A stretch of 64,000 nucleotides of DNA from an uncultured Prevotella sp. (GCA_905236455.1 CAJOPT010000096.1:4922-68921), one strand, 5' to 3'. Positions 58,562 to 63,569 are shown, counted from the stretch's first letter. Notes: generated by a model not told the origin, from the sequence alone. Numbers and translations: made by a program.

Positions 58562-58810
58562 CTATTTAGAACGCCACTTTGAAGAATATGAAAGGCGGAA
58601 ACAGATTTGGCTTCGAAAGAAAAAGAACATGTCTTCAATAAAAAACATGTCTTCAATAAGGTCACACAATATTGAGAAGCCTGAAGACGAGGCTTTATAA
58701 AGAATGCTATGCCAAAGAGAAACACGTTATTTCATTTTTTGGCACAGCATTTGCATATATGTAACTAATTGCATATTAGTAGAAAGATTAAAAGTAAAAT
58801 TTATAGGAGG

Positions 58811-61348
58811 ATGACATTAATGAGCCATTTTTCACCCAAAGTATCAGAAATACTCTCATTCAGTAAAGAAGAAGCTGAAAGGCTGGCAAGCACATCTGTA
58901 GGCCCGGAGCATCTCTTATTGGGTATACTTAGAGAAAAGAGTGGTCCTGTGAAAGAAATGATGGACACCATGAACGTTAACGTGGAGTCTATTAAATATG
59001 AGCTGGAACAAAGAATACGCCAACAAGACAACGGCAGACTGATATTCTCTTCTGACTTGCTGTTGAACGAGAAAGCCAACAATATTCTCAGGTTGGCAGT
59101 CTTAGAGGCACGGTTGCAAAAAATGCCTATGGTGGAGATACAACACCTTTTGCTGGCAATATTGCATGACAATGTAAACAACGGTGCCAAAGATGTTCTT
59201 GAGAAAAATGACTTGACATACGATACCGTATCTGGTGTCTTGCTGCCAAAAGCAAATGCCACAAACGGTATAGGTATGACTGATGAGGAGGATGAGGAAG
59301 AGAGCTCTATGGTTAATTCACAGCAACAAAGCCAATCCACATCCTCAAAGACTCGTACCAAGACGAAATCAAAGACTCCTGTTCTTGATAATTTCAGCAA
59401 AGACCTCACCCTGGCTGCCACCGAGGGTAAGCTTGACCCTGTTGTAGGACGTGAGAAAGAAATCATGAGGGTGTGTGAGATCCTTGGCAGGCGCAAGAAA
59501 AACAACCCGATTCTTATCGGTGAGCCTGGCGTCGGAAAGAGTGCCATAGTAGAAGGATTGGCACAGATGATTGTGAGACATCATACGTCACCGGTGTTAT
59601 TCAATAAAAGAGTGGTGAACCTTGATATGACAGCTGTTGTAGCAGGCACAAAATACCGTGGTCAGTTTGAGGAGCGTATACGTGCGCTCATCAACGAGCT
59701 TGAGAATAATCCCGATATAATAGTCTTCATGGATGAGATTCATACCATTATCGGGGCCGGCTCCACTCCTGGTTCCATGGATGCTGCCAATATCCTTAAA
59801 CCGGCACTGGCTCGCGGTACCATACAATGCATTGGTGCAACGACGTTAAGTGAATACCGCAACTCCATTGAGAAAGACGGAGCTCTGGAACGCCGCTTCC
59901 AGAAAGTCCTGGTTGAGCCGTCTTCACAGGAGGAGACATTACAGATTCTTACAAATATCAAGGAACGGTATGAAGACCACCATCATGTCACATATACTGA
60001 CGAGGCTCTGCTTGCCTGTGTCAAATTGACAGAGAGATACGTAAACGACCGTTTCTTCCCAGACAAAGCTATTGATGCCATGGACGAGGTTGGCTCACGA
60101 ATGCACCTGCTCCATGCTGAGGTTCCAAAAGAGATTATTGAAAAGGAAAAGGAACTGGAATCTGTCAAGCAGAAGAAGAATGACGCGGTAAGCAATCAGA
60201 ACTTTGAGCTTGCGGCAAGTTACCGTGACCGTCAGGCATCCCTTGAGAAGGAAATCAAGGAGATGAATGAAAAATGGACGAACTGCAACAGCAATGACCG
60301 TCAGGTTATCACCGAGGAGCATGTCGCAGAGGTCGTCTCCATGATGACCGGTGTGCCCGTACAACGCATGAACCAGTCTGAGGGTATCCGCTTAAAAGGT
60401 ATGTCTGAAAACCTAAAGCGGGAGGTAATAGCACAAGACAAGGCGATAGAAAAGATGGTTAAGGCCATTCAGCGAAACCGCATCGGACTAAAGGATCCCA
60501 ACCACCCCATCGGCGCATTCATGTTCCTTGGTCCTACCGGTGTAGGCAAGACCTATCTTGCAAAGAAATTAGCAGAGTTCATGTTCGGCTCTCAAGATGC
60601 ATTGATACGTGTCGACATGAGTGAATACACTGAGAACTTCAATGTGTCAAGGCTGATTGGAGCGCCTCCGGGATATGTAGGATATGAAGAGGGCGGACAA
60701 CTCACAGAGAAGGTTCGCCGCCACCCCTACTCCATCGTACTGCTGGATGAGATAGAAAAGGCACATGGCAACGTCTTCAACCTCTTATTACAGGTATTAG
60801 ACGAAGGAAGACTGACCGATGGCAACGGAAGACTCATTGACTTCAGGAATACTGTCGTCATCATGACATCAAATGCAGGCACACGACAGCTGAAAGAGTT
60901 CGGACATGGTGTCGGCTTCAACGCCGGGCGCTTCAACGCATTCTCACATGACGAGAAGGATAAAGAATATGCGCGGTCAATCATACAAAAAAGCCTCTCA
61001 AAGCAGTTCTCACCGGAGTTCCTCAACCGCCTTGATGAGATTATCACATTCGACCAACTGGACCTCAATGCCATTAAGAGCATTATTGACATTGAGCTGC
61101 GGGGATTAGAGTCCAGAATCAGCCAGTTGGGATATAAGATAGAGCTCTCTGACGCAGCTAAAGAGTTCGTCGCCACAAAGGGATATGACGTGCAGTTTGG
61201 CGCACGACCATTGAAAAGGGCTATCCAAACATACATCGAAGATGGTGTCTCTGAGATGATTCTTAATGAAGAGATCTCACAAGGCTCTACAATATATATA
61301 GACAAAGAAGCTGAAAAAGAGAGTCTGACATTTAACGCAAAAGCATAA
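58811..61348 (+). CDS. clpC: ATP-dependent Clp protease ATP-binding subunit (ClpC-type)
   Basis: Clp_N repeats, [11 protein letters not shown] linker, [24 protein letters not shown]. Start 58811 or 58820. Confidence 0.95.
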
Positions 61349-61355
61349 TGGCGGC

Positions 61356-61414
61356 AAAGCATTGATGCAGACACGGAAAGCATTGATGTAGACACGGTAA
61401 AGCATTGATGTAGA
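61356..61414. repeat. 21-bp tandem repeat (2.8 copies)
   Basis: AAAGCATTGATG(C/T)AGACACGG x2 plus a partial copy. Confidence 0.9.
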
Positions 61415-61440
61415 TTTCCGATAGCTATGCTCTAATAAAA

Positions 61441-61500
61441 AAGTTGTTACAAGATTTCAGAAAGTTGTTACAAGTTTTCAGGAAGTTGTAACAACTTTCA
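61441..61500. repeat. 21-bp tandem repeat (3 copies) forming a terminator-like hairpin
   Basis: AAGTTGT(T/A)ACAA...TTTCAG x3. 61461-61473 pairs perfectly with 61486-61498. Confidence 0.85.
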
Positions 61501-61592
61501 TTCAGAAGCTATGCTTTCTGCCAACAAAGCTATGTCGCTCTCGCCACAGAGCGGCATCTCAATGTTTGATAATGCGTACTAAATAAGCTATC

Positions 61593-62078
61593 TGCTAAAA
61601 ACTAATTTCTAAAAAAAGTATTTTTGCGTCACGCGTCACACTTCCGTGATGACATTACTATTGATAAACACCTGACTACAAGGCACTTAGAAAGCGACTC
61701 ATATTACACTATTACCCACAAAACTGCGTCTGAGATTGTCATTGCGTCGCATTTGCGACACACATGTGACGCAAATGCGATGGAAAAGCAATAAAAATTA
61801 TGCAATATTACAGGCTAAAAGCCACAACAACTGCAACAGAATCCCTGTAAACAGGGCTTTCAGGCATAAAAAACAGACAAGTAGGTCTGTGACACAAATG
61901 TGACGGAAAGCTCATTTCACCTCTTTGATTTGTCTGTAAGCACATGGTCTTGCATAAGAATGCCAACTTAAAACAGGCTTATTATCAACGGCTTCCGTCT
62001 ACTCTACCGTCACAAATCTCTTGAAAAAAGCGTGACGCGTGACGCAAAAATACTTTTTTTAGAAATTAGTTTTTAGCA
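61593..62078. mobile_element. 486-bp non-coding element with 47-bp perfect terminal inverted repeats (MITE-like or orphan origin)
   Basis: TGCTAAAAACTAATTTCTAAAAAAAGTATTTTTGCGTCACGCGTCAC at 61593-61639, exact reverse complement at 62032-62078. No ORF of 60 aa or more in the interior and no TSD seen. The IR is certain, mobility is inferred. Confidence 0.6.
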
Positions 62079-62261
62079 AACGCTACATTTTCCGTTTCCG
62101 TAACATATTGGACACTTTCTTTTTTGTGGCGTATAACTATTGAAACATCAGCCGTAAGGCTGCCGTAAAGAAAATAAGGAATGCCTGTGATAGCAAATAT
62201 GAGATCATCAAGTACCCATGATGACGTCCAGTAATGGTAAAGCGTACTTTGGAACTTTATC

Positions 62262-63569
62262 TTAAGAGGCATGGATTACGACCTTGACGCGGCTGATGCG
62301 ACGCTCCTCTATACCTACTATCTCAAATGAATAGTTTTTATAGTCAATCTTCTCATGCATACTGAGGAAGTCACCCTTGATCTCCAACAATAAGCCGGCA
62401 AGCGTGTCTGCCTCACCCTCTACCTCGGCAAACTCATCATCGTCGATATTTAATATACGGCAGAAATCAGTCATGAGAGTCTTGCCCTCAAAAATATATG
62501 TATTGTAGTTCAGTTTTGAATATGTTCTCTCCTCCTCGTCATACTCATCATTAATCTCACCCACAATCTCCTCAAGAATATCCTCAAGAGTAACCAAACC
62601 GCTTGTGCCTCCAAACTCATCTACCACAATAGCAATATGAACTTTGTTCTCTTGAAACTCACGAAGAAGGTCATCAATCTTCTTTGTCTCTGGAACAAAG
62701 TAAGGAGGGCGTATAAGACTCTGCCAACGGAAGCTGGACGGTTTGGAGATATGAGGCAGAAGATCCTTTATATACAACACCCCTCTGATGTTGTCATCAT
62801 TATCTTGATATACAGGTATGCGTGAATAATTGTTTTCCACGATACACTGTAATACCTCATTAAAAGGACAACTGATATCCAAAGCCACAATATCCTTACG
62901 CGGAGTCATCACCTCTTTTGCCGTCTCGTCACCAAAGCGGATAATACCTTGAAGCATACTCTGCTCATCCTTTATCTCTTCCTTGTCCGTAAGCTCCAAT
63001 GCCTGTTCCAGATCATCAACACTCAATTGCCGATTCTCCCTTTGCACCACTTTCTCCGCAATGTTTCCACTGCTCAAAAGGATATTCTCCAAAGGCCAGA
63101 ACAATCTTCTAAGGAACATTATACCCCCCGACGTCCTTCTGCAGAATTGCAATGGATTCTGCCTACTAAGGACCTTTGGCATGATTTCCCCGAAAAGCAA
63201 TAAAAGGAAAGTAAGGATAACCGTTATAAAGAGGAATTCCACCCATCCTACCTTAAACTTTATCAGTGAGTGAAATATAAAGTTACATAACATTATGATT
63301 GTCACATTCACAAAGTTATTTGTAATCAATATGGTTGCCAATGTCCGCTCACTGCTGTCCCTAAGGATTTCAATACGCTTGTCTGCCATGTTCCTGTCAG
63401 GCTCAAGCTCATTGACATCATTAGGAGTAAGACTGAAAAAAGCTATCTCTGACCCACTTGCGAACCCAGAGACAAACAAGAGGACAACAGCAAGGACAAT
63501 TGCAATAACTACTCCTAAGGTAAGTGGTTGAAACGCCACCAGTGAAGACACGTCAGGTAATTGTTCCAT
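62262..63569 (-). CDS. gldE: GldE / HlyC-CorC family CNNM-CBS protein
   Basis: SGSEIAFFSL, LATILITNNFVN, FGEIMPK, YSRIPVY, VDEFGGTSGLVTLEDILEEIVGEI. Confidence 0.92.
   Translation of the reverse strand: MEQLPDVSSLVAFQPLTLGVVIAIVLAVVLLFVSGFASGSEIAFFSLTPNDVNELEPDRNMADKRIEILRDSSERTLATILITNNFVNVTIIMLCNFIFHSLIKFKVGWVEFLFITVILTFLLLLFGEIMPKVLSRQNPLQFCRRTSGGIMFLRRLFWPLENILLSSGNIAEKVVQRENRQLSVDDLEQALELTDKEEIKDEQSMLQGIIRFGDETAKEVMTPRKDIVALDISCPFNEVLQCIVENNYSRIPVYQDNDDNIRGVLYIKDLLPHISKPSSFRWQSLIRPPYFVPETKKIDDLLREFQENKVHIAIVVDEFGGTSGLVTLEDILEEIVGEINDEYDEEERTYSKLNYNTYIFEGKTLMTDFCRILNIDDDEFAEVEGEADTLAGLLLEIKGDFLSMHEKIDYKNYSFEIVGIEERRISRVKVVIHAS

Follow-up and report, generated by a model that had tools for sequence, protein, structure and literature searches.

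A 486-bp inverted-repeat element in a rumen Prevotella is probably a gene-less miniature of a VapE/VirE-type helicase cassette

Results

Architecture of the element between clpC and gldE

We analysed a 64,000-nucleotide stretch of DNA from an uncultured Prevotella (the window), in which an element of 486 bp occupies positions 61593-62078. A ClpC-type gene (58769-61348, + strand) and gldE (62262-63569, - strand), whose product carries CNNM/CBS/CorC domains, converge on the element from either side, as an earlier description made from the sequence alone (the sequence-only reading) had stated. The inverted-repeat element itself is real. Its arms, at 61593-61639 and 62032-62078, form the proposed perfect terminal inverted repeat without a mismatch over 47 nt, and the repeat reaches 64 nt at 89% when mismatches are allowed; a 46-mer from the arm occurs exactly twice in the window and not at all in 100 shuffles. 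GTGAC(G/A) or its complement is present at precisely the eight positions listed earlier (61627, 61634, 61766, 61889, 61900, 62008, 62032 and 62039), against 0.64 expected per 486 bp from the rest of the window. The central palindrome could likewise be recovered, with 28-nt arms that agree at 79% around the core TCGCATTTGCG/CGCAAATGCGA, and inward-pointing TAnnTTTG boxes were found at 61619 (+) and 62045-62052 (-) and nowhere in the interior (Table 1).

The element was also described as non-coding, which agrees with our finding that no ORF of the element is kept among its copies. Several public assemblies (L102, L142, L143 and L145) annotate as a gene a 68-aa ORF at 62066-62272 (-), which overlaps both the right arm and the 3' part of gldE and is probably spurious. 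The right arm has a single mismatch at 62062 in one strain, and directly beyond its outer end lies the sequence AACGCT, which recurs at such ends in other copies.

Table 1. Coordinates of the window element, of the repeats that accompany it and of the small ORF beside the helicase cassette
Feature	Position	Strand	Description
Three tandem 21/22-bp units AAAGCATTGATG(C/T)AGACACGG	61356..61419	+	Outer part of M module
M module	61440..61520	+	21-bp repeats AAAGTTGTTACAAG(A/T)TTTCAG with palindrome AAAGTTGTAACAACTTT, then AGAAGCTATGCTTT
Left arm	61593..61643	+	A/T-rich outer part beginning TGCTAAAAAC, then box, then heptamers
Left-arm Bacteroidetes -7-type box TATTTTTG	61619-61626	+	
Left-arm tandem heptamers GCGTCAC GCGTCAC	61626-61639	+	
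Central imperfect palindrome ATTGCGTCGCATTTGCG...TGTGACGCAAATGCGATGG	61735..61792	.	Includes GTGACG at 61766
Paired sites TGTGACACAAATGTGACGGAAAGC	61886..61910	+	Two GTGAC(A/G), 11 bp apart, about one helical turn
Paired sites CCGTCTACTCTACCGTCAC	61993..62013	-	Reverse complement reads GTGACGG...G.AGACGG; conserved in the subfamily
Right arm, mirror of left	62028..62078	-	Heptamers 62032-62045; outer end ...GTTTTTAGCA
Right-arm TATTTTTG box	62045-62052	-	
Zinc-ribbon-like ORF	C20:2963-3180; L111:2570-2780; L113:1950-2135; L134 upstream region	- (C20)	

The repeated unit exceeds 486 bp

One point of the earlier description had to be corrected, namely the extent of the repeated unit. The repeats at 61356-61520 accompany the element at every locus of the 486-bp subfamily: this stretch directly adjoins all five known subfamily copies and is found inside the 650-900-bp copies of the same family, where the 61356-61419 repeats have their homologue in an internal block. 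At 61440-61520 it carries AAAGTTGTTACAA repeats that are multi-copy in the genome, and we regard this M module as a candidate operator array. Directly 3' of the clpC stop codon, the 21/22-bp repeat AAAGCATTGATGTAGACACGG is a variable-number tandem repeat; there are three units in the window, four in L142 and five in L137/L141, L142 having an insertion of 22 bp and L137/L141 one of 44 bp at ~61398-61415. Members of the 486-bp subfamily are only ~70-77% identical overall, yet arm cores, palindrome and paired GTGAC sites show no variation among them (almost none for the pair at 61886..61910). The palindrome is kept as invariant columns in 5/5 members, two of which have its unit GTGACGCAAATGCGATGGAAA doubled, and its half-site recurs in the larger copies.

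A species-specific, intergenic repeat family

The arm core TTTGCGTCACGCGTCAC occurs 39 times at ~29 loci, all of them intergenic, in the 2.57-Mb draft genome of this rumen Prevotella, so the copy-number check proposed earlier shows the element to be multi-copy. With the 486-bp sequence as query, two full-length relatives were detected in its own genome at ~70% identity, and the arms alone match ~40 places. Ten copies in the genome are complete: three of 486-514 bp, including the one in the window, six of 650-900 bp and one of 1710 bp. The non-coding complete copies all lie in intergenic gaps, with every gene orientation represented. In the larger copies the two ends are not quite alike, the bases immediately beyond TGCT are conserved, and the interiors are well conserved and rich in GCGTCAC-like sites. 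The junction of box and heptamers is kept in 39/39 arms. Because ~20 contig ends of the draft fall within members, the family breaks short-read assembly.

The range of the family is narrow. There were no occurrences of TTTGCGTCACGCGTCAC in 40 relatives (24 of the same genus), the family was not found in 300 sampled Prevotella species, and a scan of 185,579 species representatives returned single chance matches only. Phage and plasmid collections contained no family match, the one match to a viral contig being a chance 17-mer.

The absence of a target-site duplication (TSD), proposed earlier for the window element, extends to ~25 other complete copies; no TSD of any length was seen at any offset in these copies, which come from three assemblies, ~15 of them from the two assemblies other than the draft. 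When ORFs of at least 120 aa in the genome were compared all against all, no multi-copy transposase-like ORF emerged, and the only multi-copy ORFs near arms encode Fib_succ-type lipoproteins, which are plain neighbours. Three paralogous lipoproteins with a Fibrobacter-type C-terminal domain each adjoin a family arm (C113:20243-21289, C14:38624-39316 and C90:102-656). In every assembly examined, arm pairs enclose only non-coding DNA or a helicase, and neither the genome nor two further assemblies of the species hold a relative that shares these ends and encodes a transposase. No REP-like joined 'empty' target was found, and a tblastn search for helicase remnants in the interiors of gene-less copies gave chance matches only.

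A separate 45-bp REP-like repeat (…TTTCTTTCAGTCGCTTCGCTTTGTGAAAGCGTACTGAAGAAACGATT…) occurs at least 33 times in the genome, sometimes in tandem (e.g., C61:7185-7242, C72:7614 and C24:3378-3430), and is inserted in both arms of some members (C73:71367-71411, C40:22905-22950). It is unrelated to the family and is the sole part common to other Prevotella, being present in 41/301 genomes, with tandem 48-bp arrays in G005.

The sequence-only reading also raised the possibility that the inward promoters of the element give rise to RNA, either as complementary transcripts or as one long fold-back RNA. The two consensus TAnnTTTG boxes, the junction kept in all arms and the conserved interior blocks are what a non-coding RNA locus, with convergent, partly complementary transcripts or a fold-back RNA that has its own function, would display. 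In contrast, a permissive Rfam scan of the element gave only three chance-level matches (E ≥ 0.2, far under gathering scores), the RNAalifold covariation term is unfavourable (+4.3) with no covariation in the interior, and transcripts starting after the -7 box would share only ~14-20 nt of complementarity. Across copies, compensatory changes do preserve the complementarity between the two arms of a copy, but they are limited to the arms and explained equally well by a constraint on the DNA, fitting a requirement for matched arms at that level. We consider an RNA locus quite improbable.

The sole coding member of the family is a helicase cassette

Only one family member is coding. At C20:1253-2962, the same arms, to which the left arm of the window element is 94-98% identical, and the same AAAGTTGTTACAA repeats surround a single ORF of 483 aa. 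The order is upstream arm, AAAGTTGTTACAA repeat module, helicase gene and downstream arm in mirror orientation, so that in the full cassette the M module lies between the upstream arm and the start codon of the helicase; the same repeats are also located upstream of the helicase in the allele L111. The upstream arm comprises an A/T-rich part, a -7 promoter box and a pair of GCGTCAC heptamers at the expected transcription start; at the other end, the TGA stop codon of the gene falls within the downstream heptamer pair GTGACGCGTGACGC. Each arm thus carries two GCGTCAC, in mirror orientation and beside ~30 bp of A/T-rich DNA.

The 483-aa protein is a VapE/VirE-type SF3 helicase (PF05272, 1e-29; PF19263; PF12990/DUF3874 at the C terminus). 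Its predicted structure (pLDDT 83) has as best match the SaPI1 Rep1 protein (PDB 7PDS; E 4e-14, TM 0.56-0.62), over the full length of ~450 columns and including the C-terminal helix-strand region 405-476, and 7PDS was also matched by sequence search (E 0.0025). The model therefore suggests a SaPI-type initiator, that is, a VapE-like SF3 helicase with a putative DNA-reading domain at its C terminus. The surroundings of the cassette are not those of a phage-inducible island, as there is no integrase and the neighbours encode GS-III, TSCPD, Peptidase_M15_3, HU-HIG and TatC. Over its VapE and DUF3874 parts the protein is 47-55% identical to the BT4734-like family. BT4734-type proteins of Bacteroidales are primase-helicases with a VirE N-terminal domain and an AEP primase (PF08800+PF05272+PF12990; PMC11724360), and most homologues of the C20 protein are indeed ~690-aa proteins of this type. 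As the C20 protein is without the N-terminal primase domain that these carry, it may not be a complete replicase.

The genome contains only two VapE-like genes. Upstream of the second, C7:1964-3877 (638 aa), an array at C7:3880-4130 repeats a ~22-bp sequence (…AGTGCCCGGCTATGATGTAG…) four to five times and holds no GCGTCAC sites.

Allelic cassettes differ in helicase and repeats together

Comparison of C20 with L111, from another strain of the same species, revealed flanks that are 95-100% identical and a block of 50-65% identity that begins and ends exactly at the outer ends of the arms. Within this block L111 encodes a 487-aa helicase with 55% amino-acid identity to that of C20, and has an alignable but different arm, the same AAAGTTGTTACAA repeats and repeats of its own, GCTGTCACGCTATCAC. 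It also has its own 20-nt perfect inverted repeat, TTTTGCTGTCACGCTATCAC, the downstream copy of which overlaps the end of the gene. Both alleles segregate among the assemblies of the species, and the block always lies between Peptidase_M15_3 plus the zinc-ribbon-like ORF on one side and the HU-HIG gene on the other. These alignments indicate that the arm-to-arm block is a discrete cassette, exchanged between strains as one unit. The C-terminal ~85 residues of the helicase are the least conserved between the two alleles, with ~31% identity, compared with 76% for the ATPase core. This joint variation of repeats and C-terminal domain lends indirect support to a helicase that would bind its own iterons and start replication at them.

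Six gene-less ends with the core of the second allele are present in the genome of the window, so that each helicase allele has its own family of gene-less copies (orphans). This second, smaller family is represented at C111:212-600, C115:333-680, C101:29490-29580 and C97:24380-24440, where the arms share their outer sequence, TTTGCTAAAAACTAATTT, with the first family but have the core TGCTGTCACGCTATCAC matching the alternative allele. In both C101 and C111, an A/T-rich spacer separates a GTGACGCGTGAC end from a GCTGTCAC end, the two being arranged back to back. Strain FLNX has the other helicase allele at the cassette locus yet retains ~25 orphans of the GCGTCAC type, so orphans persist without their cognate gene at the cassette site.

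Could a protein other than the helicase read the repeats? HU-HIG, the zinc-ribbon protein or a host regulator might do so, in which case the family would be a dispersed operator or nucleoid-organising set. The HU-HIG gene begins 17 nt past the downstream arm in C20, L154 and L113, and in three organisms a small zinc-ribbon-like ORF rich in Cys (…RYPSGTYRHVCNQCRW…) terminates only a few bases short of the upstream arm. The palindromes of the M module resemble the binding sites of a dimeric regulator, and the persistence of orphans in a strain with the other helicase allele would also be compatible with a different reader. Both neighbouring genes, however, lie outside the swapped block and are ~99% identical between strains with different repeats, and only the helicase, above all its C-terminal domain, varies with the repeat sequence. 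We judge this alternative to be unlikely. In the strain with the 487-aa allele, HU-HIG is interrupted ~93 bp past its start, immediately beside the cassette, by a DDE_Tnp_1 insertion sequence (L111:4567-6246 / L157:7034-8614).

The same design in other Prevotella

VapE-type genes in five other Prevotella genomes also have cassette-specific short tandem repeats on both sides, in inverted orientation. The 12-bp-period repeat of the cassette in genome G013 occurs 192 times there, compared with 0 for a reversed control; at dozens of loci the copies are paired in inverted orientation, with 50-500 bp between them, and the outer arm sequence is conserved. In G016 the equivalent repeat occurs 19 times. 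Homology of arms and adjacent repeats to helicase-gene flanks is thus found in the same genome, in other strains and in other species. We also considered whether the arms at C20 might be secondary repeat insertions beside a helicase gene, which is unlikely since an identical layout, built from different repeats, is seen in the other allele and in other species.

In six lake and soil MAGs of Bacteroidales/Bacteroidota (L013, L038, L015, L040, L023 and L019), a T-run is followed by GCGTCAC/GTGTCAC arrays of two to five units. These arrays sit in short intergenic gaps, often between convergent genes, and may be arms of analogous cassettes in distant Bacteroidota.

These data bear on the possibility that the element is a classical MITE, i.e., an insertion sequence with an internal deletion for which a DDE transposase, recognising the 50-bp arms but missing from the draft, would act in trans. 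The 47-nt perfect terminal inverted repeats around a short non-coding body, the TG...CA termini and the many dispersed, intergenic copies are all typical of such elements. A missing transposase could also be accounted for by under-assembly of the repeats, in which ~20 contig ends lie; the smallest contig is 2 kb, and short repeat contigs may have been dropped. Nevertheless, a MITE does not sit well with ~25 complete copies devoid of a TSD, with a genome free of multi-copy transposase-like ORFs and with arm pairs that hold only non-coding DNA or a helicase in every assembly. Nor does it account for the same end design, built from different repeats, around the helicase genes of other strains and species, and we give it a low probability. 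The earlier proposal of a non-autonomous mobile unit stands as regards structure: there are many intergenic copies without a gene, they are confined to the species, and a larger relative that does encode a protein shares their ends; a TSD and a transposase are lacking.

Position and orientation are stable among strains

In seven further assemblies of the species, the window element is found at the same place and in the same orientation. Strains differ only in a small number of point changes, including one in the right arm, and in having 3, 4 or 5 of the 21/22-bp repeats. Five other family loci are collinear between strains, and the copy on C65 is present in all strains in which the locus was found. 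We detected no insertion polymorphism among strains at either the window or the C65 locus and therefore infer mobility only from dispersal and species specificity. As to the search for an autonomous relative and for empty sites, proposed with the sequence-only reading, a larger coding relative with the same ends exists, and the nearest species (GldE 76-79% identical) do not have clpC beside gldE, so that they lack the junction in which an empty site was sought.

A further suggestion had been a recombinase-invertible segment. We considered in this light an inverton, in which a site-specific recombinase acting on the inverted repeats would flip promoter-bearing DNA and thereby control transcription of clpC or gldE. 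In its favour, promoter-like boxes accompany inverted repeats here in a genome of the Bacteroidota, a phylum in which invertons are common. All eight independent assemblies, however, are collinear and show a single orientation with the same sequence, as the five other loci do, and no recombinase gene is found within ~5 kb, where the Pfam content is Thr synthase, decarboxylase, SSB, GldE, ClpC and BamH. Moreover, since the promoter boxes point inward from both ends, inversion would change nothing, and the flanking genes converge on the element. An inverton is exceedingly unlikely here. With position and orientation the same across assemblies, both inversion and current transposition are unsupported.

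Two local differences between strains were noted. In L140 (ERZ842392 NODE_8095), an identical gldE is followed, 68 bp past its stop codon (window position 62194), by unrelated A/T-rich DNA with radical-SAM/SPASM and aminotransferase genes in place of the element and clpC. This break is either a strain-specific rearrangement or a chimeric assembly and is not at the arm; as coverage is low and the divergence begins 116 bp outside the arm, L140 is uninformative on polymorphism. Comparison of C40:18027-22400 with L098 showed that FLNX is without ~3.4 kb beside the C40 copy of the 486-bp subfamily. The remaining 1.2 kb, element included, is 85% identical in FLNX, compared with ~99.5% genome-wide, and constitutes a local divergence hotspot.

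Discussion

A proposed orphan platform derived from a helicase cassette

The sequence-only reading, which had left its own interpretation exposed to contrary findings, survives: the element is not single-copy, it is absent from relatives, and one copy flanks a primase-family helicase. Among the possibilities it listed, that of an orphaned iteron origin from a primase/VirE-type element is the best supported, as the arms and repeats are homologous to the flanks of VapE/VirE-type helicase genes. In the window copy, both arms and the repeat module remain, and the gene gives way to ~360 bp with six more conserved GTGAC(G/A) sites and the palindrome. It resembles a miniature mobile element with a helicase-bearing parent because it is one of ~29 gene-less copies of the ends and controls of a helicase gene. 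The element is most likely an orphan binding platform, origin-like or operator-like, for the C-terminal winged-helix domain of the helicase.

The heptamers would be iterons read by this winged-helix-like domain, and two oppositely oriented iteron pairs beside easily melted A/T-rich DNA could form an origin-like loading site. As the heptamers directly follow the -7 box, the same pairs would also serve as an operator that shuts the arm promoters. The orphans, scattered in intergenic DNA, would then be additional binding, loading or titration sites for the helicase, and the ends of the cassette would have reached ~29 sites through copying that does not duplicate the target. Taken as a whole, a gene-less miniature of a Prevotella-native helicase cassette, with the proposed platform role and end-copying, is in our view probable. 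Several considerations count against it. Unlike in SaPIs, the iteron sets flank the whole gene or, in the orphan, ~360 bp, and A/T-rich DNA lies outside the iterons; the C20 protein is without the primase domain of most homologues; FLNX retains orphans although it has the other allele at the cassette locus; the neighbouring HU-HIG or the small zinc-ribbon protein could read some of the repeats; strains show no insertion polymorphism; and the interior holds no recognisable trace of a helicase gene.

It is tempting to speculate further that Prevotella, and probably other Bacteroidales, harbour an undescribed class of selfish elements whose sole gene encodes a Rep-like, self-loading helicase between mirror iteron arms and which would propagate themselves and their gene-less miniatures without transposase or integrase. 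Replication initiated locally by the helicase might, for example, lead to strand invasion or template switching elsewhere in the chromosome, alleles that differ in iteron specificity would be rivals for a single chromosomal slot, and the 486-bp element would be a non-autonomous member of a new transposon-like class. We regard this extension as rather doubtful.

With the helicase-cassette origin that we favour, BT4734/VirE/VapE-type primase-helicases, whose genes rank with the most frequent ones of unexplained function in gut and rumen Bacteroidales, gain candidate DNA sites in the form of cassette-specific heptamers in mirrored arms. Gene and arms appear as a swappable unit, and the gene-less end copies per cassette range from tens to nearly two hundred. 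If the helicase loads at orphans, a bacterial chromosome would contain dozens of latent secondary origins or protein sinks, with consequences for replication, for the transcription of neighbouring genes and for genome rearrangement; if copies spread by way of the helicase, this would be a mobile-element mechanism that does without a transposase. On the practical side, repeats of this kind interrupt short-read assemblies, as the contig ends of the present MAG illustrate.

Comparison with known systems

In the literature on Prevotella MITEs, on VirE/BT4734/DUF3874/HU-HIG and on VapE iterons, we found no description of the iteron-arm architecture or of gene-less derivatives. The closest parallel is the replication module of SaPIs and other PICIs, a Rep or Pri-Rep SF3 helicase with an iteron origin. 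SaPI Reps are self-loading helicase-initiators whose C-terminal winged-helix domain recognises penta- or hexanucleotide iterons, and in their origins an AT-rich region is flanked on either side by two or more iterons, which point in opposite directions (PMC9371898). The Prevotella cassettes are similar in several respects. The model of the parent VapE-like helicase matches Rep1 from one end to the other; short, cassette-specific repeats, at least two on each side, are opposed and lie beside A/T-rich DNA; and the repeat sequence varies together with the C-terminal domain. The layout is different, in that the repeat sets of the cassette bracket the gene whereas those of SaPIs form one block downstream of rep, where they flank a short AT-rich spacer rather than a whole gene or, in the orphan, ~360 bp. 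The cassette also stands alone in the chromosome, without integrase, packaging or regulatory genes or any link to a phage, and has dozens of gene-less copies over the chromosome. We know of no such chromosome-wide, gene-less dispersal of SaPI origins.

Bacterial MITEs and mosaic intergenic repeats, such as Correia/NEMIS, BIME/REP, RUP and the Porphyromonas gingivalis MITEs including BrickBuilt (PMC4596501), share with the present family short, non-coding units with inverted-repeat ends at tens of intergenic sites in one lineage, as well as mosaicism with other small repeats and variable tandem repeats inside. Unlike them, the window family is without a TSD, has as its only coding relative a helicase rather than a transposase, bears tandem heptamers (putative protein-binding sites) in its arms and shows no insertion polymorphism among strains. 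Iteron plasmid origins of the RepA/pi type also combine multiple short direct repeats with an A/T-rich region, and there, too, the repeats overlap a promoter, so that the initiator could repress its own transcription; here the protein is an SF3 helicase instead of a RepA-type winged-helix dimer, and the sites are chromosomal and number ~29. The invertons of capsule and fimbrial loci in Bacteroidales, from the same phylum, likewise have inverted repeats enclosing promoter-bearing DNA, whereas the window element is fixed in orientation, has no recombinase, has both promoters directed inward and has iteron-containing arms as long as 47-51 bp. The parts are therefore of known kinds, a Rep-plus-iteron module and MITE-like repeats, and it is their combination, together with the chromosomal dispersal of helicase-origin miniatures, that is new.
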